Assembly (NCBI GenBank): GCA_965203905.1
Contig: CBDBDQ010000005.1
Span: 4,192,001-4,256,000 of the forward strand
Source of the DNA: Spirochaetia bacterium
GTDB lineage: Bacteria > Spirochaetota > Spirochaetia > SZUA-6 > Bin103
DNA: 64,000 nucleotides
Direction of reading: 5' to 3'
Shown here one piece after another: positions 40,440-63,410 of this stretch. Below the pieces are notes generated by a model that saw only the letters and a program-made list of their open reading frames with translations, did not search any database and had not been told where the DNA came from. How positions within the stretch are numbered: the first letter of the stretch is position 1; every line of letters begins with the position of its first letter. A program made the translations under genes and the position numbers.

Positions 40440-41164
40440 CGATGAGCGTATCGATCATGGAGGCGCGGCGCAGCGGCCGCGGACCCGCCATCTGGCTGGC
40501 CGGCGATCCCGCCGACCTGGGGAAGTGGCTGGAGCGCGGCGCCGTGGGCATCGTCACGAACACGGTGGTGCTGAACGAGATGGTGCAGAAGTACGGCCAG
40601 CTCCTGGACGTGGTGCGCCGCTACCTGGACATCACCGACAAGCCGGTGGTGGTTGAGGTGGAAGGCCATTCCACCCAGGAGCTGCTCGACGTCAGCCACG
40701 TGTTCACCGCCCTGTCGCCGCAGGTGGTGATCAAGATCCCGTGTACCGTGGCCGGCCTCGGCGCTTTCCGCGCCCTGGAGCAGGAGGGGGTGACCACGTT
40801 CTGCACCACGGTGTTCTCGCTGGCGCAGGCGGCGGCGGTGGCACAGGCCGGCGCCAGCCACGTGCTGCCGTTCTGCGAGCCGGTGCGGCAGATGGGCGGC
40901 GACCCCGGCAAGCTGGTACGCGAGTGCGTCGCCATGTTCGCCGGCTGGGAACAGCGGCCCTACGTCACTGCCGCCCTGGTGCGTACGGTGGAGACGGCGT
41001 ACGCGGCACTGCGCAACGGCGCCGACGGCATCATCGTGTTCTGGCCGATCTTCCGCGACATGATGGAACATCCGCTCACCGACACCTGGAACCAGACCTT
41101 CGCCGGCGAGTGGCAGCAGATGCAGGACGCCGGCCTGCTGCAGGGCGTGGTGTCACAGGGGTGA
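40436..41164 (+). CDS. Short transaldolase/FSA-family protein
   Basis: GIVTNT, VVIKIP, TTVFSLAQA, HPLTD. Confidence 0.8.
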   Translation: MTMSVSIMEARRSGRGPAIWLAGDPADLGKWLERGAVGIVTNTVVLNEMVQKYGQLLDVVRRYLDITDKPVVVEVEGHSTQELLDVSHVFTALSPQVVIKIPCTVAGLGAFRALEQEGVTTFCTTVFSLAQAAAVAQAGASHVLPFCEPVRQMGGDPGKLVRECVAMFAGWEQRPYVTAALVRTVETAYAALRNGADGIIVFWPIFRDMMEHPLTDTWNQTFAGEWQQMQDAGLLQGVVSQG

Positions 41165-42702: not shown

Positions 42703-42782
42703 CCGATGGCGTGAACGCGTAGTCGCCGACCGGAATCGCCACCCCGTAGGTGAAATTCGGCGTCGACAGCCACAGGACGTGA

Positions 42783-43160
42783 CATGCGCGACGTATCTGG
42801 CGCTGACGTGGCGCCGACGTCCGAACGGTTGACGGCCTGCCGTGCACGTGCGACAGTCTGACGCTCGGGGTTCGACGGATACGGAATGAAGCGCCGCGAC
42901 GACAGCCAGCGCCGTGACCGGTTTCATACTGATCGCGCAGGCGGATTCCGTCTTACCTTTGTCATCTGGCAGGGCACCCCATGGCCCTGAAAACGAGCCG
43001 CAAGAGGATACTCAAAGAACCCATACGAGCGCGGCGTGCGCCCGTCGAGTCACGCGCCGCGCGATTCAATTCGGAACTTGCCGCCTCTGTTAGACCGCCG
43101 GCGTTACGGGCACGAGAGTAGGCGGGGAACGGCAATTCACCATGCTATACTCTCAAGAAT
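42783..43160 (+). promoter_or_regulatory. Conserved SBP-operon leader, copy A (promoter motif, short ORF 42886-42990, hairpin)
   Basis: Aligns by eye with 57227-57385 plus 57807-58010 and with 51100-51240. Confidence 0.65.
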
Positions 43161-43182
43161 CAAAGGTACGGTGTTACGAGAC

Positions 43183-45123
43183 ATGACAAGAGTGTCGATT
43201 CTCATTTTGTGCATTGCCCTGCCAGGCTCTCTGCTGTGGGCAGCAGCCGCGACCGAAGAAGAGCAGGGATCCCAGACCGCAGCCGCGGTTCCCACTGGCA
43301 GATACCTGGAGTCTCCGCTGCTGACTGCGCGAGTAAGCTCTGGAGAACTGCCTCCGGTGGAAGAGCGACTTCCGGATCAACCGGTGGTGTTCGACGCTTC
43401 CTGGAACGACGTTCCGACCGAAGACCTGGACTTTCAGGTAGGCAGGTACGGCGGAACCCTGAGAGCGGTTCGTACCCACCCCAACTGGGATGCCGACGTG
43501 TGGGCGATGTTGAAAGAGACCCTGGTAGCGTCCCCCGGTTGGATGGATGCAAATCCCAAGGACCTGCGGGGCAACGTCATCCTGGACTACGAGATTTCCG
43601 CGGATGGAACGACCTTCACCTTCACCATGCGGGAAGGGCTGAAATGGTCGGACGGTGTTCCCGTTACCACGGAAGACGTGCGCTTCACCTACGAAGACGT
43701 GCACATGAACGATGAGCTGCAGGAATTCGGCTGGGACATCCTGCAACAGTGGATGAGGGCAAGGAATCAGCCGGACGGAGAACCGATGCTGGTGGAGGTC
43801 ATTGACGACTACACCTTCCAGGTGAGCTTTCCGGAGCCCTATCCCGGCTTCATCAATAGCCTGGCAGTGTTCTGGGGCACCTACCGCGACTTTCTGAAGC
43901 CGAAGCATCACCTGATGAATTTTCACCCCGAGTATACTTCCTCGGACAAGCTCAAGGAGGCGCTGGCCGAGGCAGGATTGGAAGACAATGAATGGTACAA
44001 GCTGTTTCTCCAGGAGGACCACAACACCTGGGAGAAGACCAACACCACCGCGGTCGATTTCCCGAGCCTCTGTCCCTGGATCATTTCCGAGGTGACCCCT
44101 ACCGTAACTCTGTGGGAACGGAATCCGTACTACTTCAAGGTCGACTCGGACGGGCAACAGCTCCCCTACATCGACCTGGTGAGGTCGGAGTACGTAACCG
44201 ACAGAGAGACCATAAACCTGAAAATCGTTGCCGGTGAGCTGGATATTGTCGAACGCGAGGCAGGTGGTCCGAATCTACCGTTATTCAAGGAGAACGAGGA
44301 GCGGGGCGGCTATAACGTGACCCTGCTGCAGCAACACTTCGCGCCGGTCGACATATACCTGAACATGACCCATGCGGACCCGGTGTGGCGAGGGCTCGCA
44401 CAGGACGTCCGGTTTCGCCAGGCGCTGAATATGGCGATCAACCGCCAGGACATCATCGACAAGGTGTTTTACGGGTTTGCGTCGCTGCCTGAGGTGGTGC
44501 CCAGCGCCTACGATCCGGCGCGAGCGAATGAGCTCCTGGATGAGATCGGATTGACCGCGCGGGATGGCGACGGCAACCGACTGGGACCGGACGGCGAGCC
44601 GCTCCTGATACCGATCGAGTGGGCGCCGGAGTCCCCGGACTTTCAGCCGGTGGTCGAGCTGCTGACCCGGGACTGGACGGAACTGGACCTCGACGTGACG
44701 CCGAAAGAGCTGCAGCAGGACTTGCTCCATGAGCGCGAGCGCTCGAACGAGATCAAGATCAGCCTGAACTGGGACGACCTGGAGAAGTGGTGGCTGTTCG
44801 CCACCATCTGGGGCTCGCCGAGATTCGCTACCCATTCGTGGCACCTGTGGTATACCAGCGGCGGCGAATCGGGGGAGCAGGGTCCCGACTGGGTGTACGA
44901 GTTCTTCGACCAGATCGCGGAGGTACGGTCGTCCTCCTATGAGGACGCGCAGCGGCTGGTGAAGGGCGCTCAGCAGATCATGTATGACAACATCCTCTAC
45001 ATTCCGACCGTGCAGAAACTGAGGAAGCCGCTATTGACTTCCGTCAAGCTGGGGAATGTACCTACCAGTGGCATGGTCCTGGTCGGCGTCAACAGCGGCG
45101 AGCAGCTCTTTTTCAGAGAGTAG
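43183..45123 (+). CDS. Family-5 ABC substrate-binding protein
   Basis: Signal peptide LWAAAATEEE; ELPPVEERLP, YGGTL, KWSDGVP, ERNPYYFKVD..GQQLPYID. Confidence 0.9.
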   Translation: MTRVSILILCIALPGSLLWAAAATEEEQGSQTAAAVPTGRYLESPLLTARVSSGELPPVEERLPDQPVVFDASWNDVPTEDLDFQVGRYGGTLRAVRTHPNWDADVWAMLKETLVASPGWMDANPKDLRGNVILDYEISADGTTFTFTMREGLKWSDGVPVTTEDVRFTYEDVHMNDELQEFGWDILQQWMRARNQPDGEPMLVEVIDDYTFQVSFPEPYPGFINSLAVFWGTYRDFLKPKHHLMNFHPEYTSSDKLKEALAEAGLEDNEWYKLFLQEDHNTWEKTNTTAVDFPSLCPWIISEVTPTVTLWERNPYYFKVDSDGQQLPYIDLVRSEYVTDRETINLKIVAGELDIVEREAGGPNLPLFKENEERGGYNVTLLQQHFAPVDIYLNMTHADPVWRGLAQDVRFRQALNMAINRQDIIDKVFYGFASLPEVVPSAYDPARANELLDEIGLTARDGDGNRLGPDGEPLLIPIEWAPESPDFQPVVELLTRDWTELDLDVTPKELQQDLLHERERSNEIKISLNWDDLEKWWLFATIWGSPRFATHSWHLWYTSGGESGEQGPDWVYEFFDQIAEVRSSSYEDAQRLVKGAQQIMYDNILYIPTVQKLRKPLLTSVKLGNVPTSGMVLVGVNSGEQLFFRE

Positions 45124-45204
45124 TCGGAGTTCGCCTGCTGGTTACCGCGTGGCGCTGCGGCCGGGAGCCTCGGCGCCACGCCTTCAGCAACATCGTAGCG
45201 CAGC

Positions 45205-46203
45205 ATGGTAGGATATATTCTCGGCCGTATCCTTCAGGTGGTGCCGCTGTTGATCGCTCTGTCCATCGTCAGCTTTCTCATCATCGAGCTTCCCCCCGGC
45301 GATTATCTGACTTCCCTCATCTTGCGCCTGGAGCAGTCCGGCAAGCAACTCAACGACGAAGAGGTGCTGCGGCTGAAGAAACAGTACGGTCTGGATAGAC
45401 CTGCGGTCGTCCGTTACTCCATGTGGATATGGAATATTCTCAGCGACGGGGACTTTGGCAGATCCTTTACCTGGCAGAGACCGGTAGCCGAAGTAATCAC
45501 CGAGCGCATCGTCTTGACCATGGTCATATCGATAGCTACCCTGCTGTTCACCTGGGTGGTGGCGGTCCCGGCGGGTATCTATTCGGCGCTCCGGCAGTAC
45601 TCTCCATTCGACTACGTTACCACGTTCTTCGGCTTCATCGGGTTGTCGACTCCCAACTTTCTGCTGGCGCTGATCCTGATGTGGTTGGCCTTCAACCATC
45701 TCGGTGTGGCAGTGACGGGGCTGTTCTCTCCCGAGTATGCGGATTCCGCCTGGAGCCTGGCCAAGGTAGGGAACATGCTCAGCCACATCTGGGTACCCAT
45801 TCTGGTCATAGGCACGGCCGGTACCGCAGGGATTATCCGCGTGATGCGGGGATGCCTGCTGGATGAGCTCCGCAAGCAGTACGTAGTCACCTCGCGCGCC
45901 AAGGGGTTGGCCGAGACCAGGTTGGTGTTCAAGTATCCGGTGCGGGTCGCGGTCAATCCGCTGATCAGCACCATTGGTTGGCTGTTGCCGGCGATTATCT
46001 CCGGAGAAACCATAACGGCGATTGTCCTGAACCTTCCGACTTCCGGCCCGATGTTGTTCCAGGCGCTGCTCGCTCAGGATACCTACCTTGCCGCGAGCTT
46101 CGTGTTGATCCTGGCATTCTTGACCATAATCGGAACCTTGATCTCGGATCTTCTGCTGGTCTGGCTGGATCCCAGAATCAGATACCAGGGTGTTGCCAAG
46201 TGA
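45205..46203 (+). CDS. ABC permease (DppB/OppB-like)
   Basis: YILGRIL, GDFGRSF, STPNF, YVVTSRAKGL, LDPRIRY. Confidence 0.9.
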   Translation: MVGYILGRILQVVPLLIALSIVSFLIIELPPGDYLTSLILRLEQSGKQLNDEEVLRLKKQYGLDRPAVVRYSMWIWNILSDGDFGRSFTWQRPVAEVITERIVLTMVISIATLLFTWVVAVPAGIYSALRQYSPFDYVTTFFGFIGLSTPNFLLALILMWLAFNHLGVAVTGLFSPEYADSAWSLAKVGNMLSHIWVPILVIGTAGTAGIIRVMRGCLLDELRKQYVVTSRAKGLAETRLVFKYPVRVAVNPLISTIGWLLPAIISGETITAIVLNLPTSGPMLFQALLAQDTYLAASFVLILAFLTIIGTLISDLLLVWLDPRIRYQGVAK

Positions 46204-47312
46204 CTGCGACCGAGGTCGCAAGAGATCGCGAAGAACGCTACTATGTCGCCTCGCAATGGCAACTTATCTGGAGGAACTTCAAGAAACACAGGCTCGGATT
46301 GGCCGCATTGCCGGTACTTGGTTGTCTCTATTTCCTGGCCGTATTTGGCGAGTTTGTCAGTGCCTACACCCCGTTGACCTACTTTCGGGATCGCGAGAAC
46401 GTGCCGCCGCAGAGGATCCACTTCGTGCGCCCGGACGGTACCTTTCAACTGCGCCCGTTCATCTACGGGTTGCAACAGGAGATGGATCCCGACACGTTTC
46501 GGCAGGTGTACCGGCACGATACCACAAGCATCGTTCCTCTGCGCTTCTTCGTGACGGGTGAACCGTACAAGATGTGGAACCTGTTCCACGCCGACAAGCA
46601 CCTCTTCGGAACCGATGGAGAAGCTGTCTTTCTGCTCGGCACGGACCGCTTGGGGCGGGATCTCTTGTCGCGGGTGATATATGCGTCACGCATCTCTCTG
46701 ACCGTGGGTCTGGTCGGGGTGATAATGACGTTCGTGTTCGGACTCGTGCTCGGCGGCGTGTCCGGCTACTTCGGCGGCGTGATCGATACGGTGGTAATGA
46801 GAGCGATTGACTTCGTAATATCGTTGCCGACCATTCCCCTGTGGATGGCGCTGGCGGCGGCGCTTCCGGAGAGCTGGAGCTCGATTCAGGTCTATTTCGC
46901 CATTACCCTCATCTTTTCGATCATCGGTTGGGCCGGCCTGGCGCGCGTAATCAGGGGAAAGCTCCTGGCGTTGCGAGAAGAGGACTTCGTGATGGCGGCG
47001 AAGATCTCCGGAGCCTCCAACGCCAGCATTATCGGCAGGCATCTGCTGCCATCGTTTGCCAGCTATCTCATTGTAAACCTGACGATCGCGGTACCCTCGA
47101 TGATCCTCGGCGAAACCGCCTTGAGTTTTCTGGGTCTGGGGATTCGCCCTCCCTCGGTAAGCTGGGGTACGTTGCTGCAGGACGCCCAAAAGCTACAGGT
47201 ATTGGCCCATCAACCCTGGCTGCTGATACCGTGCATCTTCGTGATCGTTACGGTATTGATGTACAATTTTCTCGGTGACGGACTGCGCGATGCCGCTGAT
47301 CCCTATCGATGA
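46200..47312 (+). CDS. ABC permease (DppC/OppC-like)
   Basis: LGTDRLGRDL, REEDFV.AA, ETALSFLGLG, LGDGLRDAADP. Confidence 0.9.
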   Translation: MTATEVARDREERYYVASQWQLIWRNFKKHRLGLAALPVLGCLYFLAVFGEFVSAYTPLTYFRDRENVPPQRIHFVRPDGTFQLRPFIYGLQQEMDPDTFRQVYRHDTTSIVPLRFFVTGEPYKMWNLFHADKHLFGTDGEAVFLLGTDRLGRDLLSRVIYASRISLTVGLVGVIMTFVFGLVLGGVSGYFGGVIDTVVMRAIDFVISLPTIPLWMALAAALPESWSSIQVYFAITLIFSIIGWAGLARVIRGKLLALREEDFVMAAKISGASNASIIGRHLLPSFASYLIVNLTIAVPSMILGETALSFLGLGIRPPSVSWGTLLQDAQKLQVLAHQPWLLIPCIFVIVTVLMYNFLGDGLRDAADPYR

Positions 47313-47338
47313 ATCGCTGAATCGCCGAGGTTTGAGGA

Positions 47339-48901
47339 GTGAGCACGTTGACGGCGAATGATGACAACGTTTCCGGACAGATCGAAAGAATGTCGAGCCT
47401 TGTTCCCCGGGCGCGCGAGCTGCGTGAGAGATACCAACGGGATCCGCACCGGCCGGCGTATCATTTCGTTGCCCCGGAAGGTATCTGCCACCCGTTCGAT
47501 CCGCAGGGCTGCATCTATTGGAAAGGGAGGTGCCACCTGTTCTACGCATACCAGGTGGAGGGCGTGGGCGTGTGGGGACACGCCTCCAGTGCCGACCTGG
47601 TGCACTGGATCCATCACCCGATCCCGTTGGGAGTGTCGCCCGGGGACCCGGAGGAACAGGTCTACGCCGGCGGCTCGCTGGTAAACAAGGATGGCGTGCC
47701 GACCATGATCTACCACGGGGTGAACGCCGGCACGTGCATTGCCACCAGTGAGGACGACGAATTGATCCATTGGACCAAGCATCCGGCAAATCCGGTGATC
47801 CCCAAGCCCAGGGAGGGTGATGATGGCTATGGCAAATACCATGTCTGGGACACCTGCGGCTGGCTCCACGAGGATACCTACTACTCCATTTGCGGGAACC
47901 ATCCGTTCGAGCTTCCCGAATCGGACGGCGACACAGCCTACCTGTTCCGCTCTCACGACCTGGTCAACTGGGAGTATGTCCATCCGTTTTATCAATCCGA
48001 CCGGCGCTGGACGGAGGCGAACGAAGACTGCTCCTGTCCCGATTTCTTTCCGATCGGGAACAAGCACATGCTCATGTTCATCAGCCATACCCACGGCACC
48101 CAGTACTACCTGGGCAGCTACGACGGGGAGAGATTCGTGCCCGAGCGCCATGCTCGGATGAGCTGGGCGGGCGGACCCCTGTTCGCGCAGGAGAGCCTGC
48201 TGGCTGGAGACGGCAGGCGCATCTTCTGGGCCTGGGTGTTCGAGTCCCGGTCGCGGAACGCGCAACTGTCCGCCGGCTGGGCGGGGGTGATGAGTCTTCC
48301 TCGGGTGCTGTCCCTCGGCCAGGATGGCACTTTGCTTATCGAACCTGCCGAGGAGCTGCAGATGCTCAGGCGGAACTACCGCCGGCAGGAAGGTGTCGGC
48401 CTTGCGGACGGGTCGGAAATGAGATTGAAGGGGATGGAAGGGGACTGCCTGGAGCTCGCTCTCGAGGTAGACGATCCCCGTGGGCAGCAGCTCGGGGTGA
48501 TGGTGCGTTGTTCTCCGGATTGCGAGGAGCACACCGTGATTCTGTTCGACGACGAGGCACGGACGCTGCAGGTGGACACCTCGCGCTCCAGCTTGAGCCC
48601 GGAAATCGTGCAACCGTGGCCTCAACACGGCACCTCCTTCTCGCCCAATCCGCTGGACGGGCGGGAAGATGTCCGGGTCCAGAAGGCGCCCTTCGAACTG
48701 GCGCCCGGTGAGCCGCTCAGACTGCGGATCTTCCTTGACCGCTCGATTCTGGAGGTGTTTGCCAACAGCCGGCAGTGCGTGACGCAGAGAATCTACCCGA
48801 CGCGAAGCGACAGCATGGGGGTAAGGCTGTTCAGCCGAAAGGGCCGCATCTCGGTGCGGTCCATCGAAGCCTGGGATATCACCGCGGCCAACCCCTGGTA
48901 A
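47339..48901 (+). CDS. Glycoside hydrolase family 32-like protein
   Basis: RPAYHF, FDPQG, WGHASSADLVHW, CPDFF, SLPR, IFLDRSILEVF. Confidence 0.85.
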   Translation: MSTLTANDDNVSGQIERMSSLVPRARELRERYQRDPHRPAYHFVAPEGICHPFDPQGCIYWKGRCHLFYAYQVEGVGVWGHASSADLVHWIHHPIPLGVSPGDPEEQVYAGGSLVNKDGVPTMIYHGVNAGTCIATSEDDELIHWTKHPANPVIPKPREGDDGYGKYHVWDTCGWLHEDTYYSICGNHPFELPESDGDTAYLFRSHDLVNWEYVHPFYQSDRRWTEANEDCSCPDFFPIGNKHMLMFISHTHGTQYYLGSYDGERFVPERHARMSWAGGPLFAQESLLAGDGRRIFWAWVFESRSRNAQLSAGWAGVMSLPRVLSLGQDGTLLIEPAEELQMLRRNYRRQEGVGLADGSEMRLKGMEGDCLELALEVDDPRGQQLGVMVRCSPDCEEHTVILFDDEARTLQVDTSRSSLSPEIVQPWPQHGTSFSPNPLDGREDVRVQKAPFELAPGEPLRLRIFLDRSILEVFANSRQCVTQRIYPTRSDSMGVRLFSRKGRISVRSIEAWDITAANPW

Positions 48902-48926
48902 CCGCGGCATCAAGAGATCAGTTCAA

Positions 48927-50441
48927 ATGGAATCACCTCGGTACTATGACCGGCCCGACATGGCGCCATGTTCGACGCTTCACTTCCGCCCGGAAGGGGC
49001 ATTGGTCGGGGATGCGTCGTTCTTTCGGCACGGCGATGAGTGTCACATCTTCTACCTGAGCAAGCGCAACGACGATCCGCCGCGCCTGCCGACGTGTCAG
49101 CTCGATCATGCGGTCAGCAAGGACCTCCTGCATTGGGAAAGATTGCCCACGGCTCTGTTTCCGGGAGAACCGGGGGAGCCTGATGACGATGGCATCGGCG
49201 GATGTTCCATCGTGTGTCGGGACGGCAGGTTTCACATGTTCTACGCTGGAACCAATCCCCAGGTGACCTACCATGCGGAGAGCCGTGACCTCATCGAGTG
49301 GCGGAAGGATGACCCGCTGAAGCCGGTCATCGTTCCCGATCCGCGCTGGTACATGGCGCACGACGCGGCGGTGCAGGATCCGTACAACGAGCGGGGTTGG
49401 CGGGATCCGTTTCTGTTTCATGACGACAAGCAAGGACGCTACGTGATGACGGTGACGGCCAGGCGCAACCAGGGACCATGGCGCGAGCGGGGCTGCGTTG
49501 CCTGGGTGGTCAGCAGCGACCTCGTCGACTGGCAGGTGCAGGCGCCTCTCTACGCTCCTTCGCTGGGAATGAACCTGGAGGTCACCGAGCTGTTCGAGAT
49601 GGATGGTCGCTACTTCCTGATTTTCTGTCATGGAGAGACCAATACGACCCGTTACCGGGTGGCGGATCGGTTGGAGGGTCCCTACCGGTGTCCGGCGGAT
49701 GACGTCCTGCTGCCGAACTACCTGTACGCGCCGCGGACGATTGAACGGCTTGGAAAGCGGTACCTGATCCCATGGGTGGCGGATCGCCTCAACGGCAGCG
49801 ACGACAATCGGTCGGAGTTCGGCGCCGAAGGAGTTACCTGGGGCGGCGCCTTGGGCACGCCCCAGGAAATGCGCTGCCTCGCGGACGGCAGACTTGCGCT
49901 GTTCTTCCCGGACATCGTGACAGGGCTGGCCGGCACGCAGACGCTGGGTGCAGGCAGCCTCGACCATCTGCGGACCGAGCGCGGCGAATGGAAGCGGCAG
50001 GGAGAGACGCTACTGGCGTCGTCCGATCAGGGAATGGCACGCGGACTGGTGGCCGTGCGCGGACACGACTTCCTGCTCTCGTGCCGTATCAGGATTGGCC
50101 GTGGCGTAGCCGCGGGATTGATCCTGCGCGCCAGTGAAGACGGCGCGGCCGGCTACTACTTGCGCCTGGAGCCTGCACTGAAGAACGTCTCCCTGTGGAG
50201 GTATCCGCGGCCGTGGTTCTGTGCCAGGCCAATGGCGTTCCGGGTAATCCCGGAGCTGGACCATGGGCAAACCATAGAGGTGAAGGTAATCCTGCACCGG
50301 CACGTGCTCGACGTATACCTGGATGACCGCCAGGTGTTGAGTCGCGCCGTGTACGACTACCGGGAAGGGCAGTTCGGATTGTTCGTCGAAGACGCGGCGG
50401 CAGAGTTCGGACCTCTCGCAGCGAACACCCTCAAGGAGTGA
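48927..50441 (+). CDS. GH32/clan GH-J five-bladed propeller glycoside hydrolase
   Basis: VGDASF, HAVSKDLLHW, WRDPF, SSDLVDW, LEVTELF. Confidence 0.8.
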   Translation: MESPRYYDRPDMAPCSTLHFRPEGALVGDASFFRHGDECHIFYLSKRNDDPPRLPTCQLDHAVSKDLLHWERLPTALFPGEPGEPDDDGIGGCSIVCRDGRFHMFYAGTNPQVTYHAESRDLIEWRKDDPLKPVIVPDPRWYMAHDAAVQDPYNERGWRDPFLFHDDKQGRYVMTVTARRNQGPWRERGCVAWVVSSDLVDWQVQAPLYAPSLGMNLEVTELFEMDGRYFLIFCHGETNTTRYRVADRLEGPYRCPADDVLLPNYLYAPRTIERLGKRYLIPWVADRLNGSDDNRSEFGAEGVTWGGALGTPQEMRCLADGRLALFFPDIVTGLAGTQTLGAGSLDHLRTERGEWKRQGETLLASSDQGMARGLVAVRGHDFLLSCRIRIGRGVAAGLILRASEDGAAGYYLRLEPALKNVSLWRYPRPWFCARPMAFRVIPELDHGQTIEVKVILHRHVLDVYLDDRQVLSRAVYDYREGQFGLFVEDAAAEFGPLAANTLKE

Positions 50442-50511
50442 ACTTGCGACGATGTAGTTCTCGACCAGCGCCCTGCGCAGGTGGCGTTCGTCCGCCATGC
50501 GGTGCCCCGGT

Positions 50512-50901
50512 TCAGAGTTGCTCCTCGATCCACCTGCCATCGTGCGCGGGGTTGTAGATGAGACCGCGCTGCATGTCCACGGCCAGGTCCAGTAACTCCA
50601 TGACCATATGGCCGACCAGCACCGGCGTACCGTCGGGGAGGTTGGTAACTTCGAGCGTGCCGGACCGTCCCAGGACGGTGAATCTGACCTCCGAATAGGC
50701 GGTCAAGGAACGCGTCGTGCCGACCGGCGTGAGCCCCAACTGGGAGATCAGATTTTGAGGCAACGAGAGCCGGGTGGCACCGGTGTCGACCAACGCATCG
50801 CGCACTTCCAGACTCCGCACTCTCGCGCGCTCGATGATGCCGCTCTCAGCCCGGATTTCATCGGCTCGATTGACCAACGTGATTTCCGTCGTATGGCGCA
50901 T
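50512..50901 (-). CDS. Clan AA (retropepsin-like) aspartyl protease
   Basis: ALVDTGA motif and VLVG...L.LAVD tail. Confidence 0.8.
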   Translation of the reverse strand: MRHTTEITLVNRADEIRAESGIIERARVRSLEVRDALVDTGATRLSLPQNLISQLGLTPVGTTRSLTAYSEVRFTVLGRSGTLEVTNLPDGTPVLVGHMVMELLDLAVDMQRGLIYNPAHDGRWIEEQL

Positions 50902-51099
50902 GGATGCGCCAGGAACGTACCATCTCGGCCAGGGGCAGGCAACCGAGCCCGCTCCGGCGATCGCGTGACCGGGCGGCTGACATCTTCCTGATCAGCAATC
51001 GCTCGAGCGCTTCGACCTCGCGGTCGTGATCTTGCGTCCCCGTAAGAGATTCGCCGAGCTGCCGTGAAACGCGGCTTGGCTCGCTCGGCTCACGCGCGC

Positions 51100-51335
51100 T
51101 TGACGGTTGGCGGTCGTGTGGTACAGTGACTGCTTCGGGAGTCGGAAAGCCGCTCATGAAGCGCAGTGACACATCCCACCGCAGCCGCCGGTTCGCTCCA
51201 ACGCAACCGGTGCGTCCCCCCCGGCAGGCAGTCGCGTAAGCCACGCACAAGTAAGCAATAGCGTTACCCAACCCGGGCTGCGTGCAGCCTTGCGGCAGTA
51301 CCCGACACCTCCAATCCTCCGGCGTTGCCGGACCT
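51100..51335 (+). promoter_or_regulatory. Conserved SBP-operon leader, copy C (promoter motif plus short ORF 51156-51239)
   Basis: TTGACG-N16-TACAGT then ATGAAGCGC; peptide MKRSDTSHRSRRFAPTQPVRPP aligns with copy B. Confidence 0.5.
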
Positions 51336-51564
51336 GGGAGCGAAGCGCTGGCGACCGGCCGGTCCGTGCAAGGGGGTGTCCGTGACGAGATAGACCACGC
51401 CACGGGACCCGCGTAACGCCGCGTCGCGCACGCAGTTCCCGAGTAGCACATGGGCTGCCCGCCTCGCTAATGGCCGCCTGCGGTCGATGTAGGCAACGAG
51501 AGCAGGCGAGGGGCCGGGCCGTGAGATCGGAGAATGCTCTCGAACGAGATCGGAGGTAATTCGC

Positions 51565-53098
51565 CCCGGTAGTCGAGAAACTCGTCATCGGCGACTGGGC
51601 GATCGGCGGGAGCGAGCATAACTGGCGCAGCTATAACGTGCCGTTCTCGGTCATGCAAGGACAGTTGGCGGAGAGTTGGGAAACGCCGGACGCCACCACG
51701 ATCATCGTCAAGGTCCGCCCGGGCGTTTACTGGCACGACAAGCCACCGATGAACGGTCGGGAGCTGACCGCCAGCGATATCGAGTTCAACTATCATCGCC
51801 TCTTGGGGCTCGGCAGCGGTTTCAGCGAACCCACGCCGTTCAGTTGGACACTCCCTGCCGTCACATCCGTGACGGCCACCGACAAATCGACGGTAGTCTT
51901 CAAGCTGACGAGGCCAGACCTCTTTGGGGTGCGCAAGGCATTCGACACGTGGGATACGTGGATCTACCCTCCGGAGGTCATCCAGCAACACGGCGACATG
52001 AAGGATTGCAGGAATCTGGTGGGCACCGGGCCCATGGAGCTGACGGACCTGGTGGAAGGCAGCTCTTGGACGTGGACCCGGGTTCCCGACTACTGGGGGT
52101 TCGACGAGAAGTTCCCGGACAACCGCCTGCCCTACGTCGACGAGCTGAACGCCCTGGTCATGCCGGATGCGGCGGCGCGGATCGCGGCCCTGCGCTCGGG
52201 TCAACTCGATATGTTGGCGACTCTCGGCGACTCTCAAATGAGGTCACTCGACCAGGTGGAGAGCCTGCGCCGGACCGATCCCGACATCAGGATGTGGGAG
52301 ATCGCGTTTCGGTCCGACAACGCATTCTCCTTCGTAAACCAGCAGAATCCGCCTTTCGATGACATCCGGGTACGCCGCGCCATGCAGATGGCTCTGGACC
52401 TGGAGACGATTGCGAACACCTACTTCAAGGGTTTGGCCGATCCGACGCCACAGGGAATGATCCACAGCGACAATGCCGGAACTGGCACGCCGTTCGACGA
52501 GTGGCCGGAGGAGGTCAAGCAGTACTACCGCTACGATCCGGAACGGGCCAAGCAGCTTCTGGCCGAGGCGGGCTATCCCGATGGCTTCAAGACCCGGCTG
52601 GACTATGGGAACCGCTTCGATGCGAACTACGCAGAGCTCGTCATTGGCTACTGGGGTGAGATTGGCGTCGACGTCGAGCTGTCCGTTAAACCCGGGCCGG
52701 AGATGGTAGCCATCCAGCGGGGGCATACGACGGACGGAATGATGCACTTTTCCAGCGCTGCCACCTACGCCGATGCCGGCACGCTGAAGGCGGTTTTCAC
52801 CTCCGGCTCCACCAGCAACTTTGGCAACATCAACGACCCGGATTTCGACGCTCTGATCGAACGCGCAGAGGCAGCCACGACGCTGGAGGAACGGAATCGG
52901 CTCACCAAAGAGGCGAATCTGTACGCCATAGCCCAGCACTGGGAAGCCGTGGGTCCGACCAGCCCGCAGTTCAACGTCGCCCAGCCGTGGGTCAAAGGCT
53001 ATGACGGGGAGATATCGCTCGGCATGCAGGGCCAGTTCTTGACGCTGACGGCCCGCGTCTGGATCGATCAGGATCTGAAGCGGGAGATGGGATTCTGA
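51565..53098 (+). pseudogene. Family-5 ABC substrate-binding protein, 5'-truncated (no signal peptide)
   Basis: Homology to the SBP at 58029 starts mid-protein (VVEKLVIGDWAI...GQLAESWE); the rest of the frame is intact. Confidence 0.75.
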
Positions 53099-53121
53099 TT
53101 TAGCTGTTGGCACATGACGAA

Positions 53122-53151
53122 GTGGGATGGCGGCGCAGGCCGCCGTCCCAC
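53122..53151 (+). other. Intergenic stem-loop after the SBP gene (copy at 62319-62348)
   Basis: GTGGGATGGCGGC-GCAG-GCCGCCGTCCCAC. Confidence 0.65.
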
Positions 53152-53168
53152 ACCCGAGCCCGCCTGCA

Positions 53169-54134
53169 ATGCGAACCTACATCATCCGCCGCGTCCTGCT
53201 GCTGATCCCGACGTTCCTGCTGCTGACGGTCCTGGTGTTTCTCTCGGTGCGCTTCCTCCCCGGCGACGTCGTCGACGCCATGATGGACCGGCTGTCGAGG
53301 CGCGAAGGCGGGATGGAGCACTTCGACCGCGAGCGGGTCGAGCGCATGCTCGGGCTCGACGTGCCGGCGCCGGTGCAGTACGTGCGCTGGCTGGGCGGCA
53401 TCTTCCTGCACGGCACCCTGGGCGAGTCACTCCTTGGCGGAGTTGCGGTCGAAGAAAAGATCATCGGCCGGCTGGCGATCACCGTCGAGTTGGGCGTGCT
53501 GTCCATCCTCATCGGCCTGGTGATCGCGGTGCCGGTGGGCATCTACTCGGCGGTGCGGCAGGACACCGCGGGCGACTACGCCGGCCGTTCCATCGCCATC
53601 ATCGGCCTGGCCACGCCCAACTTCTGGCTCGCCACCCTGGTGCTGACCTTTCCCGCAATCTGGTGGGCGTGGGCGCCGCCGCTGCGCATGGTGGCGTTTG
53701 TCGACGACCCGCTGCGCAACCTCGGCCACATGCTCATTCCCAGCCTCATACTGGGCACCTACCTGTCGGCTACCGTGATGCGCATGACGCGCACCATGAT
53801 GCTGGAGGTGCTGCGCCAGGACTTCATCCGCACCGCCTGGGCGAAGGGACTGAAGGAGCGGGTGATCATCCTGCGGCACGTGATCAAGAACGCGCTGATC
53901 CCGGTGGTGACGCTGATCGGGCTGCAGTTGCCGATCCTGGTCGGCGGCTCGGTGATCATGGAGAACATGTTCGCGCTGCCGGGTCTGGGGCGGCTGATGC
54001 TGGAGGCCCTCACCGCGCGCGACTACCCGGTGGTGTCGGGCATCAACCTGTTCTTCGCGACCGCGGTGATGACGATCAACCTGTTGATCGACATCCTCTA
54101 CGGCTACCTGGACCCGCGGGTCCAGTACCGCTAG
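53169..54134 (+). CDS. ABC permease (DppB-like)
   Basis: MRTYIIRRVLLLIP, ATPNFW, QDFIRTAWAKGL, LDPRVQY. Confidence 0.9.
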   Translation: MRTYIIRRVLLLIPTFLLLTVLVFLSVRFLPGDVVDAMMDRLSRREGGMEHFDRERVERMLGLDVPAPVQYVRWLGGIFLHGTLGESLLGGVAVEEKIIGRLAITVELGVLSILIGLVIAVPVGIYSAVRQDTAGDYAGRSIAIIGLATPNFWLATLVLTFPAIWWAWAPPLRMVAFVDDPLRNLGHMLIPSLILGTYLSATVMRMTRTMMLEVLRQDFIRTAWAKGLKERVIILRHVIKNALIPVVTLIGLQLPILVGGSVIMENMFALPGLGRLMLEALTARDYPVVSGINLFFATAVMTINLLIDILYGYLDPRVQYR

Positions 54135-54228
54135 GAGGCTGGCGCGTGCGACAGACTCCTAGCGGACGGTGGGGATGGGCCGAAAGCGGCGCCGTGGCGA
54201 CGGTAGCGGGGCGGTGAGGGGGCCATCG

Positions 54229-55194
54229 ATGGGCGACCCATCCAGACCGCAGTCCAAACCCCGGCCCTTTCTGGTCGACCTGCTGCGGCGGCTGGTGCGG
54301 GAGCGCCCGCTGGGGGCGGCGAGCGCGGTGGTCATCCTGCTGCTGGCGGTGGTCGCCATCCTGGCCGACGTCCTGGCGCCCTTCCCGTTCGCCGAGATGC
54401 ACCTGGTCGACCGGCTGGGCGACCCGTCGGCTACCTACCTGCTGGGCACCGACCAGCTCGGCCGCGACGTGTTGAGCCGGCTGGTGTACGGCGCCCGCAC
54501 CTCGCTCGGGGTGGGCTTTGCCGCCACCCTGCTCAGCACCCTGGTGGCGCTGCTGGTCGGCGGCGTGGCCGGCTTCGTCGGCGGCAAGCTGGACATTCTC
54601 GTGCAGCGCTTCGTCGACGCCTGGATGTCCTTCCCCGGCCTGTTGCTGCTGCTGACGATCATCACCATCGTCGGCCAGGGCATCCTGCAGATCATCGTCG
54701 TGCTCGGCGTCACCTCCGGCATCGGCAACTCGCGCGTGATCCGCAGTGCCGTGATCGGCATCAAGGAGAACCCCTACTTCGAGGCCGCGCGCGCCATCGG
54801 CAGCGCTCCCTGGCACATCCTGAAGCACCACGTGTGGCCGAACATCACCGCGCCGGTGATCGTCGTGTTCTCGATCACGATCGGCGGCATCATCATCGCG
54901 GAGGCGTCGTTGAGCTTCCTGGGGTTCGGCCTGCCGACCACGGTGCCGAGCTGGGGCGGCATGCTGAGCCGCGAGGGGCGTCAATTCATGGAGATGGCGC
55001 CGCGTCTGGCGATGTGGCCGGGGGTGTGCCTGACGGTGGTGGTGTACTGCCTGAACATGTTCGGCGACGCGGTGCGCGACCTGCTCGACCCGCGGCTGCG
55101 GGGCGGTGGCGGCGGCGCCGGCCTCGGCAGCGGCGGCATGAGCGCCCGCGCCATCGAAGGCGCCCGCCGCGCCCTGCACAAGGCGGCGGGGTAG
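54229..55194 (+). CDS. ABC permease (DppC-like)
   Basis: LGTDQLGRDV, YFEAARAIG, EASLSFLGFG, GDAVRDLLDPR. Confidence 0.9.
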   Translation: MGDPSRPQSKPRPFLVDLLRRLVRERPLGAASAVVILLLAVVAILADVLAPFPFAEMHLVDRLGDPSATYLLGTDQLGRDVLSRLVYGARTSLGVGFAATLLSTLVALLVGGVAGFVGGKLDILVQRFVDAWMSFPGLLLLLTIITIVGQGILQIIVVLGVTSGIGNSRVIRSAVIGIKENPYFEAARAIGSAPWHILKHHVWPNITAPVIVVFSITIGGIIIAEASLSFLGFGLPTTVPSWGGMLSREGRQFMEMAPRLAMWPGVCLTVVVYCLNMFGDAVRDLLDPRLRGGGGGAGLGSGGMSARAIEGARRALHKAAG

Positions 55195-55203
55195 GCGGGC
55201 CGT

Positions 55204-55275
55204 ACCTGTTGCCTCACCCAAACATCCACACGAAATAAAACGGGTGCCTCATGCAAATATCCACACGAAACAGGT
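55204..55275. repeat. Two imperfect 26-bp direct repeats within short inverted ends
   Basis: TGCCTCACCCAAACATCCACACGAAA and TGCCTCATGCAAATATCCACACGAAA, bounded by ACCTGTT/AACAGGT. Confidence 0.6.
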
Positions 55276-55414
55276 GGCGGTAAAGGGGTGGGTGATCCTC
55301 ATCGAACTCCCCCAACTGCCTCGATCCAGGCGAGCGCCTCGGCAAGAGCCGAATCGAGACCGGAGACCGACTGCGCTACTCGGGTCTAACCGCCGCAAGG
55401 CTCGCGAACCCCGA

Positions 55415-55786
55415 TCACGGCCGCGTTGCGACCCGGCGGAGTCTTATGCGTCCGGCGCGATAGACGGCGATAATCGGTGGCGTCCAGTCGATCTCTTCCG
55501 CTATTAGCGCGTCGATATCAGCTATCACGTCATCCGGTCGACGCCCTCCAGGTCTCATATACAAGATCCCCGTGAACGGTTCACCGCGATGCACGGCCAA
55601 TGTCCCAAAATCTGAATCATGGGTGATCACGAATCGAGACAGTGCGTACGCCCTTGCCAATATCTCGCTGTCAGTGGAATGGCCCCACCGCTCCTCGTGA
55701 GCCGAGATGACTGCGACGCCCCGTTCCCGGAGGAAGTGAACGACCGGAACCGCGATATTCATGTCAGCCACAAGTGGCGGCAGCAC
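55415..55786 (-). CDS. DUF5615 PIN-like toxin
   Basis: ADMNI, DSEIL, ITHDSDFG. Confidence 0.85.
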   Translation of the reverse strand: MLPPLVADMNIAVPVVHFLRERGVAVISAHEERWGHSTDSEILARAYALSRFVITHDSDFGTLAVHRGEPFTGILYMRPGGRRPDDVIADIDALIAEEIDWTPPIIAVYRAGRIRLRRVATRP

Positions 55787-55787
55787 A

Positions 55788-56039
55788 CTAACGAACCGCC
55801 CCCGCCCGTTTCACTTCGATTATGACATCATTGTGAATTGCCTCTGCTGCGTATTGGATCGCTGATGTAACGTCGTCAATCGTGAGTTCAGGATACGAAT
55901 CAACGATCTCGTGCTGCGACATCCCATCAGCCAGCAAGCCCAGGATATGATCAACACTCAGGCGGGTTCCTTCGATAGTCGGCTTACCACCAAGGATTTC
56001 CGGATTGAGTACAATGCGGCGCACGGCTCCAACCTCCAC
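55788..56039 (-). CDS. DUF433 antitoxin
   Basis: NPEILGGKPTIEGTRLSV...YPEL..DDV. Confidence 0.9.
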   Translation of the reverse strand: MEVGAVRRIVLNPEILGGKPTIEGTRLSVDHILGLLADGMSQHEIVDSYPELTIDDVTSAIQYAAEAIHNDVIIEVKRAGAVR

Positions 56040-56124
56040 CGGACAGTACTACGGACACGTGAACACAATGTAGCATACCGGTGGCATATTCGCTCGGCAC
56101 GGGCAGGCCGGCTGAGGCCGGCAG

Positions 56125-56549
56125 CCGCTGGGGGCGGCGAGCGCGGTGGTGATCCTGCTGCTGGCGGTGGTCGCCATCCTGGCCGACGTCCTTGGCGCCC
56201 TTCCCGTTCGCCGAGATGCACCTGGTCGACCGGCTGGGCGACCCGTCGGCCACCTACCTGCTCGGCACCGACCAGTTCGGCCGCGACGTGCTGAGCCGGC
56301 TGGTGTACGGCGTCCGCACCTCGCTCGGGGTGGGCTTTGCCGCCACCCTGCTCAGCACCGTGGTGGCGCTGCTGGTGGGCGGCGTGGCCGGCTTCGTCGG
56401 CGGCAAGCTGGACATTCTCGTGCAGCGCTTCGTCGACGCCTGGATGACCTTCCCCGGCCTGTTGCTGCTGCTGACGATCATCACCATCGTCGGCCAGGGC
56501 ATCCTGCAGATCATCGTCGTGCTCGGCGTTACCTCCGGCATCGGCAACT
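56125..56549 (+). pseudogene. Internal fragment copy of the DppC-like permease (54307-54730)
   Basis: Near-identical DNA with one extra T near 56191; ends at GGCAACT. Confidence 0.85.
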
Positions 56550-56588
56550 ATCTTTCGCCAGGCTGGGTGGGACTGGAGAGAACGATGA
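56547..56588 (+). pseudogene. 3' remnant of a HicA-like toxin gene
   Basis: TIFRQAGWDWRER* resembles HicA C-termini; its stop overlaps the hicB start (ATGA). Confidence 0.65.
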
Positions 56589-57001
56589 ACTACCCGGTCG
56601 TGATCCACGAGGATGCGGACAGTGACTTTGGCGTGACAGTGCCGGATCTCCCGGGCTGTTTTTCCGTTGGCCAAACGATGGACGATGCCCTTACGAATGC
56701 CGCCGAGGCCATCATCACTCATGTAGAGGGGCTTCTCCTGGATGGCGAGCCCATTCCGGAGCCAACAAAGATCGAATCACATCGGGCCAACGCTGACTAT
56801 AGCGACGGCACATGGGCCATGGTGACCTTGGACCTCTCACGGGTGAGTGGCAAAGCACGGCGCATCAACGTCACCATTCCCGAACGAGTTCTGTCACGGG
56901 TGGACGACTATGCGAAGGAGACAGGTGATTCTCGATCGGGTCTGATGGCCGCCGCGGTGCTGGAATATATCAGCCAACGGCTCGAGAAAGAGGTGAGCTG
57001 A
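56585..57001 (+). CDS. hicB: HicB-family antitoxin
   Basis: YPVVIH, GVTVPDLPGCFS.G, EAI..H, C-terminal RHH (RINVTIP). Confidence 0.9.
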   Translation: MNYPVVIHEDADSDFGVTVPDLPGCFSVGQTMDDALTNAAEAIITHVEGLLLDGEPIPEPTKIESHRANADYSDGTWAMVTLDLSRVSGKARRINVTIPERVLSRVDDYAKETGDSRSGLMAAAVLEYISQRLEKEVS

Positions 57002-57226
57002 CAGATCCGGCTGCAAACCAGTCGCCCGAGGAGGCCAATTCCTCGGTCGCGCCGCTTCGGCAACGGTTTCGTGCGAAGCGACCGACGAGAGGCATTGGCA
57101 CGGTGGCAGGAGCGGTGGCGGTTCCCTGAGGGCCGCTGGGCTGAATCGTCGCGGACTCCGGACGCCGCGCCCCAAGCTGTCCAGAGCACAGCCGCCGTGC
57201 ACAGGGCAGCCGCGGGCTCGCTCGCC

Positions 57227-58010
57227 ATGGCGCGGCGACGTTTCGATCTACGCCCAGCGCAAGGCGGTCACGTTTGGTGAGCTCCGAGTCGTTGACAGGG
57301 CGCCGCGCCCATGCAAGCATGCTTGGCCTGGGGTCGACGGATGCCCATGAAGCGCCATGATGACAGTCAGCGCAGTGACGGGTTGGCGGTGACGCAGCCG
57401 ATGCACCCCCCCCCACCCACACTTTTCGAACCGACGAACAACTAACCGCTCCGGCTGATCGCCCCGTACGCAACCCCGCGCACGCCGTCGCCTTCACTAC
57501 CGCCGTAGCTGTCGGTGGCACCGGCTCCGTCCATCGCCGAACCGGCATGCGGGCCGCCCGCACCGTTATCGTCGACCGCGACCGTGCCGGATCCGCGCCC
57601 GCGACTGACTGCCGGCAAAACCCACCTCCGGCGTCGCCGGTCAATCAGACTCGCTGCTTCGCCGACCACCGCCGCGCGGGCGTTGTGACGCAGGTCCCGA
57701 CCTCCGGCGAGCGGTCGGCGTTTGCACGATCGGGCGCCCACCCGCTGCGCGCACCGCACCCCATCTTACGTCTATTGCCCACCCGAGACAGGCAGCTTCC
57801 GTCACGCATCTGGCAGGGCACCCTGTGCCCCAAGAGAGAGAGGTGCAAAATGATACTCAAAGAATCTCACGCGCGCGCGGCGTGAGCCCGGGTGAACCCG
57901 GCTGAGTCACACGCCGCGCGCTTCACAAATTGACTCAGACTGGCCGTCCGCGTTGCGGGCCCGAGAGTAGCCAGGGAGCGGCAGTCCGCTCCGCAATACT
58001 CCAAAAAACC
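57227..58010 (+). promoter_or_regulatory. Conserved SBP-operon leader, copy B (longest; short ORF 57347-57445)
   Basis: Shares blocks with copy A (e.g. CATCTGGCAGGGCACC, GATACTCAAAGAA, GCGCGGCGTG hairpin, CGAGAGTAG, ATACTC) and with copy C. Confidence 0.65.
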
Positions 58011-58028
58011 TGATTTATGGAGAAAACC

Positions 58029-61949: not shown

Positions 61950-62197
61950 TTGTGGCGTTTCTGGCTACTACACTCTTGATGAACTCATCGACTTCGGCCA
62001 ACACGGGCTGTGGTCGTTCCACGACGTGCGGTTCTCGGCCGCCGGTACCCTGCTGGCCACCACCACAGCGGTGGTCAGCGCTGCGCCAGCGGGACAGTTC
62101 AGCGAGGAGTTGGACAACCTGCTGCACGTCGGTATTCAGGATGCCTGCGCAAGCTCGTCCAGCAGCGCAAGCTGACGCGCCAGAAGGTTGGCGGGCT
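61950..62197 (+). mobile_element. Fragment of a transposase-associated (ISAzo13-like accessory) ORF at the duplication junction
   Basis: YYTLDELIDFGQHGLWSFHDVRFS..GTLLAT...ELDNLLHV..QDA/LRKLV; family recognised from memory. Confidence 0.45.
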
Positions 62198-62365
62198 ATA
62201 ACGGGGAGATATCGCTCGGCATGCAGGGCCAGTTCTTGACGCTGACGGCCCGCGTCTGGATCGATCAGGATCTGAAGCGGGAGATGGGATTCTGATTTAG
62301 CTGTTGGCACATGACGAAGTGGGATGGCGGCGCAGGCCGCCGTCCCACACCCGAGCCCGCCTGCA

Positions 62366-63331: not shown

Positions 63332-63376
63332 GAGGCTGGCGCGTGCGACAGACTCCTGACGAACGGTGGGGAAGGG

Positions 63377-63406
63377 CCGAAAGCGGCGCCGTGGCGCCGC
63401 TTTCGG
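63377..63406. other. Perfect palindromic hairpin just before the permease start
   Basis: CCGAAAGCGGCGCC-GT-GGCGCCGCTTTCGG. Confidence 0.65.
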
Positions 63407-63410
63407 GGCG

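Follow-up and report, generated by a model that had tools for sequence, protein, structure and literature searches.

The window analyzed here is a 64,000-nucleotide (nt) stretch of the genome of a Spirochaetia bacterium (contig CBDBDQ010000005.1, positions 4,192,001 to 4,256,000, forward strand), and it contains three ATP-binding cassette (ABC) transporter operons, each of which begins with a gene for a solute-binding protein (SBP) that is followed by two permease genes. The noncoding DNA ahead of these SBP genes belongs to a family of modular leaders that recurs across the genome and probably controls dozens of nutrient-uptake operons together. The family is built from three modules, namely, a module with a promoter motif and a short reading frame (M1), a C-rich spacer (M2), and a structured RNA that reaches the SBP start codon (M3). 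The three copies in the window are designated A, B, and C, and their features are listed in Table 1.

A sequence-only reading of the window had described one shared leader ahead of the three SBP genes, and its landmarks stand: TTGAC(G/A) precedes each gene, and ATGAAGCGC opens a short open reading frame (micro-ORF 1) of 34 codons in copy A, 32 in copy B, and 27 in copy C, all at the positions claimed. Copies A and B are indeed homologous over the roughly 200 nt beside the gene (blastn, 69% identity over 203 nt; E value, 6.6e-15), and copy B carries approximately 400 nt that copy A lacks. Three homologous leaders had been claimed, but copy C shares only the promoter/MKR module with the other two. 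The SBP start codons lie at 43183 and 58029, whereas the copy C gene, noted at 51565, is truncated at its 5' end: homology begins at 51572, which corresponds to residue 87 of the B protein, with an in-frame stop codon at 51557-51559 and no start codon before 51638. The copy C SBP gene is probably a remnant. The first SBP had been placed in a different subfamily; all three genes match PF00496 (SBP_bac_5), and the A protein is 23% identical to that of copy B.

Table 1. Features of leader copies A, C, and B and of their operons in the window
Feature	Coordinates	Strand	Evidence and details
Copy A, module M1	42820..42925	+	nhmmer E 2.3e-18; -35 TTGACG 42829-42834, -10-like GACAGT 42852-42857
Copy A, micro-ORF 1	42886-42990	+	begins within M1 and extends past its end
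Copy A, module M3, degenerate type	42993..43182	+	covariance model R1, 105.6 bits
Copy A, SBP_bac_5 gene, separate subfamily	43183..45123	+	Pfam; two permease genes, then two GH32 genes, downstream
Copy C, module M1 only	51093..51239	+	nhmmer E 7.4e-7; -35 TTGACG 51100-51105, -10-like TACAGT 51122-51127
Copy C, micro-ORF 1	51156-51239	+	sequence reading
Copy C, SBP_bac_5 gene lacking the first ~86 codons, including the signal peptide	51572..53098	+	tblastn, frame reading, Pfam
Copy B, module M1	57282..57412	+	nhmmer E 6.3e-35; -35 TTGACA 57292-57297, -10-like AAGCAT 57315-57320
Copy B, micro-ORF 1 (MKRHDDSQRSDGLAVTQPMHPPPPTLFEPTNN, then stop)	57347-57445	+	C run at ~57405-57413
Copy B, module M2, C-rich spacer	57424..57780	+	nhmmer E 3.4e-88
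Copy B, module M3 core, structured RNA reaching the SBP start codon	57838..58031	+	covariance model R1, 206 bits
Copy B, mini-ORF 2 (MILKESHARAA-stop; family consensus, MILKEPHARAA-stop)	57850..57885	+	Shine-Dalgarno-like GAGAGGTG at 57838-57845
Copy B, hairpin P1	57873..57921	+	12 G-C-rich pairs, 57873-57884 with 57910-57921, enclosing an inner hairpin
Copy B, helix P1'	57902..57938	+	CTGAGTCA 57902-57909 with TGACTCAG 57931-57938
Copy B, helices P2 (57946-57951/57955-57960), P3 (57963-57969/57997-58003), and P4 (57975-57981/57986-57992)	57946..58003	+	covariation; top ranks in the column-pair scan
Copy B, SBP_bac_5 gene	58029..59858	+	PF00496, E 4.4e-68; Shine-Dalgarno GGAG 58019-58022
Copy B, two permease genes after the SBP gene	59955-60914 and 60915-61859	+	

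A genome-wide leader family with a fixed module order

Copy B was divided into M1 (57264-57420; promoter motif and MKR frame), M2 (57421-57780), and M3 (57781-58030), and two rounds of nhmmer were run across the whole 7.99-Mb genome. The similarity among the three copies is real but reaches far beyond them, with 43 M1, 33 M2, and 36 M3 matches that make up 51 loci, far more than expected by chance. M2 is approximately 300 nt long, and M3, which adjoins the start codon, is approximately 190 nt long. All 30 loci with more than one kind of module have the order M1-M2-M3 toward the gene, and M1 is frequently arranged in tandem, with up to four units at a period of approximately 125 to 135 nt. Loci with M3 alone have long noncoding DNA upstream that belongs to other shared types, which indicates that the middle part of the leader exists in several versions. 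The leader copies always lie directly upstream of the gene and are oriented toward it, and the end of M3 coincides with the start codon. The element is not bounded by terminal inverted repeats; the only inverted repeats found are internal hairpins. The sequence-only reading had also considered that the copies might be a decayed transposase or an insertion sequence (IS) end; no transposase remnants were found, and the six ORFs overlapping copies A to C have no Pfam match at E values up to 0.1.

Placement of the leader is tied to SBP genes and is not random with respect to them. The genome has approximately 133 Pfam SBP_bac_5 matches, and a profile built from the B protein retrieves 188 SBP-like ORFs, of which 42 are preceded, on their own strand and at a distance of no more than 1.5 kb, by a leader module; the share rises to 38 of 47 in the best-scoring clade. 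The proposal that a cis element common to a whole regulon accompanies the SBP expansion is thereby borne out. Conversely, 42 of the 51 leader loci lie directly before SBP_bac_5 ORFs, the SBP gene being the first gene of each operon. At four of the other nine loci, an SBP gene follows 1.6 to 2.2 kb downstream, one or two genes on, and the genes in between comprise two for ABC ATPases, one for a reverse transcriptase, and two uncharacterized ORFs. The remaining loci lie before an SBP_bac_1 gene with a permease gene (one locus), a permease gene (one), a homocysteine S-methyltransferase gene (one), and ORFs without a Pfam match (two), and at the SBP_bac_1 and homocysteine S-methyltransferase loci, M1 occurs alone. 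A search of the SBPs against NCBIfam gave no equivalog above the cutoff.

At locus L143 (G000:C5:4844956-4848456), the reverse-transcriptase gene (ORF at 666-1772; PF00078; E value, 1.3e-34) lies just behind a broken M3, which stops midmodule at profile position 152 of approximately 240, with the SBP gene approximately 2.2 kb downstream; the arrangement looks like a retroelement inserted into a leader. At L144 (179-2128) and L149 (1827-3338), a leader composed of M1-M1-M2 and the first ~60 positions of M3 precedes related-looking ORFs of 650 and 504 amino acids, respectively, which have no Pfam match and are located between the leader and the SBP gene.

A second reading frame and a conserved fold in M3

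The M3 alignment draws 28 of its 76 copies from this genome and the other 48 from seven relatives. M3 opens with AGGAGGUG, and 5 to 6 bases on, the sequence continues with AUG AUA CUC AAA GAA CCG, a variable codon, and GCG CGC GCG GCG UGA, which together form mini-ORF 2. The block GATACTCAAAGAA, which the sequence-only reading had seen only as conserved DNA, holds this frame. Mini-ORF 2 begins with AUG, GUG, or UUG in 68 of the 76 copies and with CUG in 4, and the other 4 lack a start codon. Of the 76 copies, 63 have a Shine-Dalgarno motif, which in 59 of them lies 5 to 6 nt from the start. Most copies encode 11 codons, and six have a version of 6 codons (MILKEP-stop). In codons 2 to 6, third positions vary in 6, 8, 7, 17, and 11 of the 76 sequences, respectively, compared with at most 4 at other positions, and 47 of 68 substitutions are synonymous in the frame of mini-ORF 2, versus only 3 and 8 when the alternative frames are read. 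Codon-level support is weak for the MKRxDxSxR frame of micro-ORF 1, to which the sequence-only reading had drawn attention, and strong for this second frame. The string MILKEP occurs in no paper of the literature searched, and a search on the concept returned general attenuation papers only.

A single motif match (23 specified bases) falls outside the M3 copies, at L123:290-345, in a long stop-free stretch that reads ...FEILKDPARRAAYDQ... and resembles the peptide MILKEPHARAA in both protein and DNA; the translated stretch looks like the end of a J domain.

Five helices are kept in M3, designated P1, P1', P2, P3, and P4. P1 consists of 12 GC-rich pairs enclosing a variable inner hairpin; its arms in copy B are 12 nt long and 100% complementary, 96.5% of its alignment cells are paired, and three of its pairs change on both sides. 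P1' pairs CUGAGUCA with UGACUCAG and has four pairs that change on both sides. The other helices are P2 (GCCCGC/GCGGGC), P3 (GAGAGUA/UACUCUC), and P4 (GGAGCGG/CCGCUCC). Across the five helices and an additional CUGGC/GCCAG pairing, the latter without double-sided change, 92.5% of 3,570 cells are paired. Double-sided changes affect 16 pairs and 38 cells, compared with 11 ± 2.9 cells in column shuffles, none of which reached 38 in 500 trials, and 11 to 20 in slid controls; in addition, an unbiased scan of all column pairs ranks P3, P2, P1', and P1 first. At three positions, many sequences (30, 19, and 23) have a U-G or G-U pair, and since these would be mismatches on the opposite strand, the fold belongs to the sense RNA. 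The sequence-only reading had recognized no known RNA family, and an Rfam search of positions 42000-59000 of the window likewise gave no match at E values up to 1 among 4,227 families.

The frame and the fold overlap. Codons 8 to 11 and the stop codon of mini-ORF 2 (TGA at 57883-57885 in copy B) form the 5' arm of P1, and a ribosome there must therefore open P1. The 5' arm of P1' lies within the P1 loop, beside the 3' arm of P1, so that P1 and P1' either coexist as a pseudoknot or alternate. Once the mini-ORF stretch is forced to be single stranded, P1' appears in the minimum-energy fold of copy B. P1' is weak in seven of the eight copies without a canonical start codon, versus 6 of the 68 with one (Fisher P = 6e-6), an association that is suggestive only, because the seven copies come from only two or three lineages. 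Copy A is of this kind: its M3 lacks the Shine-Dalgarno motif and has AGG at the mini-ORF start position, with 10 of 12 pairs in P1 and a weak P1' of 4 of 7 pairs.

M3 also contains many conserved unpaired blocks. One motif occurs twice, as AUACUCAAAGAA inside mini-ORF 2 and as AAUACUCUCAAGAA just before the SBP ribosome-binding site (RBS), and an A-rich stretch lies directly ahead of the SBP Shine-Dalgarno motif. UACUC of the mini-ORF motif may pair with GAGUA of P3; 91% of this pairing is canonical, with no covariation. Two terminator-like sites on the minus strand, found in a scan of copies A and B, were rejected, as they are P1 and a short M2 hairpin read backwards.

Modules M1 and M2

TTGAC is present in 40 of the 43 M1 copies, and in 34 of these 40 it is followed 16 to 19 nt later by an NANNNT hexamer. 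The MKRHDDSQR frame (micro-ORF 1) begins with ATG or GTG in 35 of the 43 copies. Synonymous changes are mildly enriched in its codons 2 to 8 only (73 of 205, versus 40 and 43 in the other frames), and later codons show no enrichment. The frame enters a C run of 6 to 20 nt, with lengths that are not multiples of three, which reads as prolines; it is not kept after this run, and six of the 43 copies stop at a conserved AAC-AAC-TAA, although homopolymer lengths in such assemblies may be wrong, which makes the frame past the C run unreliable. M1 has no consensus RNA fold downstream of the promoter (alifold, 0.0), with a single 7-bp helix that shows almost no covariation. In one M1 subfamily (e.g., 57270-57284), an inverted repeat, GTCAC-N5-GTGAC, lies just ahead of the -35 motif; GTGAC half-sites turn up again within the MKR frame, and it is at such sites that the tandem M1 units break. 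This repeat may be an operator for a DNA-binding regulator.

M2 is rich in C (0.34 to 0.48) with G at 0.21 to 0.34 (31 copies). A period-3 signal is absent from it, and a consensus fold is nearly so (alifold energy, -5.4). The genome carries a rho gene (PF07497; 116 bits; a 573-amino-acid frame) and an efp gene, and no CsrA gene was found in it.

Conservation and separate histories of leader and gene

Over the 406 pairs among 29 loci, mean identity is 0.70 for M3, 0.56 for coding-sequence nucleotides, 0.43 for protein, and 0.51 for four-fold sites, and M3 identity exceeds that of four-fold sites in 95% of the pairs. An orthologue of copy A in another species of the genus has the same leader variant, and the two SBPs share 87% amino acid identity over 488 residues; between these loci, M3 is 80.2% identical, compared with 69.5% for third codon positions and 90 to 94% for first and second positions. 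Copy B resembles loci in three other species at 79 to 90% in M2, 88 to 95% in M3, and 50 to 65% in M1, with SBPs that are only 54 to 55% identical.

M3 and SBP identities are barely related (Spearman coefficient, 0.24; Mantel P = 0.044), and nearest neighbors agree at 2 of 29 loci; in one pair of loci, M3 is 94% alike and the SBPs are only 48% identical. We conclude that leaders have been reassorted between genes by recombination. In copy A and at three further loci (loc10, loc13, and loc27), the leader stands before isolated members of SBP subfamilies that otherwise lack it; none of the eight nearest paralogues of the copy A SBP has a leader. The histories of leader and gene are thus decoupled and the module is portable, as the sequence-only reading had suggested when it spoke of a portable expression module. 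The M3 of copy B reaches 94% identity with copies in other species and at best 89% with those in its own genome, which argues against simple within-genome homogenization. The best explanation is that selection maintains the module, which is propagated both when SBP genes duplicate and when recombination places it before unrelated genes.

Distribution and matches in RNA libraries

Of 10 other genomes searched within the genus, 7 have M3 by BLAST, whereas 30 further genomes from the order have no match; the covariance model identifies the same seven genomes, and 13 genomes searched from the sister genus have none. The three genomes of the genus without M3 have completeness values of 81%, 95%, and 95%. 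Covariance-model copy numbers are 33 in this genome and 43, 62, 84, 35, 5, 2, and 1 in the relatives, with the 84 copies in a 4.9-Mb genome (G005) and the 62 copies in a 6.5-Mb genome (G004), indicating that M3 copy number changes fast within the genus. A motif scan of species genomes gave 27 stretches, 25 of them in three records titled "MAG: Spirochaetia bacterium" (MAG, metagenome-assembled genome). One further stretch, on a 4-kb contig of a MAG titled Acidobacteriota, is a full M3 (200 bits), and that in a MAG titled Armatimonadota is probably a chance match in coding sequence, with a long stop-free stretch and no covariance-model match. The same scan of JGI metagenome contigs gave no matches.

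In two studies, contigs assembled from a total of four RNA libraries are at least 88% identical to M1, M2, M3, and the SBP gene. The matches listed include 57275-57375, 57499-57620, 57596-57718, 57840-57960, and 57903-58001; the bin 57200-57260 is uncovered, none of the matches listed bridges leader and gene, and depth is not comparable between leader parts. These matches are compatible with transcription of the leader family, weakly so, as they come from relatives and paralogues and DNA carryover is possible.

A predicted ribosome-sensing switch

Together, these features point, with somewhat more confidence than doubt, to a lineage-specific, ribosome-sensing cis-regulatory leader family whose structural switch between P1 and P1' acts on transcript completion or stability. 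M1 would supply a sigma-70-like promoter and the first transcribed bases, M2 would form a C-rich unfolded spacer, and M3 would be the folded RNA extending to the SBP start codon. When a ribosome translates mini-ORF 2 or pauses there, it would melt P1 and release the P1 loop to pair with the downstream octamer in P1', and the leader would switch between the two folds according to translation status, setting the amount of full-length, stable SBP mRNA. In a more speculative form, which we put forward tentatively and consider rather doubtful, MILKEP would be a new short arrest peptide whose ribosome reads a global signal, such as an exit-tunnel metabolite, charged transfer RNA, or EF-P supply, and coordinates dozens of importer operons via P1/P1', carried on a portable cassette that recruits new genes (33 copies here and up to 84 in a relative).

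Several observations weigh against such a switch. With so little variation at most helix positions, covariation is moderate, and the aligned sequences are related, being a mix of paralogues and nonindependent relatives. A consensus promoter scanner found no promoter in M1 of copies A and B, because the -10 motif is weak. No U-rich tract follows P1 or P1', and no intrinsic terminator is therefore evident. Copy A and its orthologue show that leaders lacking a mini-ORF start are retained in more than one species, so the mini-ORF is not indispensable. In the 15 copies folded both ways, masking the mini-ORF shifts the predicted accessibility of the SBP RBS in both directions, inconsistently; with P1 approximately 135 nt from the SBP Shine-Dalgarno site and no consistent change at the RBS, a classic RBS-sequestering mechanism is not supported.

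Alternatively, M3, and perhaps M2, would be a docking platform for a trans-acting factor (a small RNA or an RNA-binding protein) or for a riboswitch ligand that reports global nutrient status, with a posttranscriptional regulon as the outcome and the mini-ORF secondary. The conserved unpaired blocks, including the AUACUCAAAGAA/AAUACUCUCAAGAA motif, are explained by neither helices nor coding, M2 is 79 to 90% conserved between species without coding or folding signals, the variants lacking the mini-ORF start persist, and the small RNAs GcvB and AbcR control many SBP mRNAs via shared sites in the 5' untranslated region (UTR). This explanation is nevertheless unlikely, as it leaves the synonymous-substitution pattern of mini-ORF 2 unaccounted for, the Rfam search was empty, the genome has no recognizable CsrA gene, and no partner RNA or protein has been identified, no search for a complementary small-RNA gene having been made. 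A little less likely still is a constitutive expression booster without any switching, in which the RBS, the mini-ORF, and stable hairpins shield the mRNA from 5' decay and keep SBP levels high relative to those of the permeases. STAB-SD elements and ermC-type 5' stabilizers work as 5' mRNA protectors, and the strong Shine-Dalgarno motif and very stable hairpins near the 5' part of M3, the A-rich region just ahead of the SBP Shine-Dalgarno motif, the first position of the SBP in each operon, and a predicted RBS accessibility that is independent of mini-ORF occupancy would all suit such a role. A stabilizer needs no specific peptide, yet codons 2 to 6 are constrained at the amino acid level; nor does it call for the conserved alternative pairing P1' with its compensatory changes, and full copies have several hundred nt (M1 and M2) upstream of the supposed 5' protector.

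That the leaders are functionless, neutral relics of operon duplication homogenized by gene conversion among paralogues is very improbable. Their presence on 38 of 47 SBPs of the top clade is what inheritance with duplications would give, and gene conversion could decouple leader similarity from gene similarity, but conservation of M3 exceeds that of four-fold or third-codon sites, which holds for the orthologous pair between species as well, and the M3 of copy B has its closest relatives in other species. Neutral decay would also leave neither strand-specific helix covariation nor a period-3 substitution pattern, both of which are found, and module order and orientation are fixed in all loci. 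Least probable of all is a mobile repeat, that is, a miniature inverted-repeat transposable element, an IS remnant, or a Correia-type promoter-bearing element that inserts upstream of genes. The high copy number, varying from 1 to 84 between species, the presence before unrelated genes, and the tandem arrays of up to four M1 units are reminiscent of such elements; against this stand the lack of bounding terminal inverted repeats, the lack of Pfam matches in the ORFs overlapping copies A to C, and the single orientation directly upstream of a gene with M3 ending exactly at the start codon.

Comparison with known systems

The closest working analogues of the proposed switch are leader-peptide attenuators. 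cat-86, cmlA, and ermC are controlled by leader-peptide translation attenuation, and like them, M3 has a short ORF with its own Shine-Dalgarno motif, a hairpin that follows at once and whose 5' arm a ribosome would melt, and an available alternative pairing. Unlike in the cat and erm systems, the P1 hairpin does not contain the RBS of the regulated gene, which lies approximately 135 nt away, and the folds show no coupling to it; the genes are importers rather than resistance genes, and five genomes have 33 to 84 copies each. The leaders resemble the regulons of GcvB in enterobacteria and AbcR1/2 in alphaproteobacteria in that many SBP mRNAs are tied together by a common 5' UTR element, but the sites of those small RNAs are short single-stranded motifs, whereas here a folded module of approximately 190 nt has its own ORF and is joined to up to approximately 500 nt of shared leader. 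With the cis-regulatory families of Rfam, M3 shares a conserved, structured 5' UTR element at a fixed position before genes, and it matches none of those searched.

In tnaC, speFL, mgtL, and cruR, a translating or stalled ribosome on a small leader ORF masks or unmasks a Rho loading site, and cruR and tnaC control importer genes (PMC12360218). The likeness lies in micro-ORF 1, which runs into a proline-reading C tract and then a C-rich, unfolded spacer of approximately 300 nt in a genome with a rho gene, and M2, whose composition downstream of a small ORF resembles that of the Rho loading sites in those leaders, may be a Rho-loading region; unlike in those systems, coding support for micro-ORF 1 is weak, and mini-ORF 2 precedes a folded RNA that is not C rich. 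For the BmrCD ABC transporter, ribosome-mediated transcription attenuation via a leader peptide has been reported (PMC4191407). The parallel is an ABC transporter operon with a translated leader peptide, here a predicted one, as the control; BmrCD is a single exporter locus with intrinsic termination, whereas dozens of importer loci without an evident terminator are involved here.

Other features of the window

The operon of copy A extends into two GH32 genes (fructan or sucrose hydrolase family; 47339-50441), and a sulfatase gene lies upstream of it (40741-42702). Because of these genes, the family-5 SBP of copy A may serve sugar rather than peptide uptake. A segmental duplication repeats the 3' end of the copy C SBP gene and its two permease genes (52997-54673) behind the copy B operon (62194-63840) at 91 to 99% identity. 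A further fragment of it, 56193-56492 (within 56069-56492), is 97% identical and opens an ORF at 56192-57001, the C-terminal part of which is a HicB-like antitoxin domain. The region around this duplication is recombinationally active.

Implications

In this genome, annotation pipelines miss 400- to 900-nt "intergenic" regions that are conserved, functional leaders. If the proposed reading is true, M3 would be a new structured RNA family for Rfam, and mini-ORF 2 would be a candidate new regulatory nascent peptide with only six conserved residues. The leaders would also be a natural example of regulatory modules that spread between genes via recombination rather than transposition, and one uncultured genus would have built a very large posttranscriptional regulon by copying and reshuffling a single leader cassette before its expanded SBP genes.

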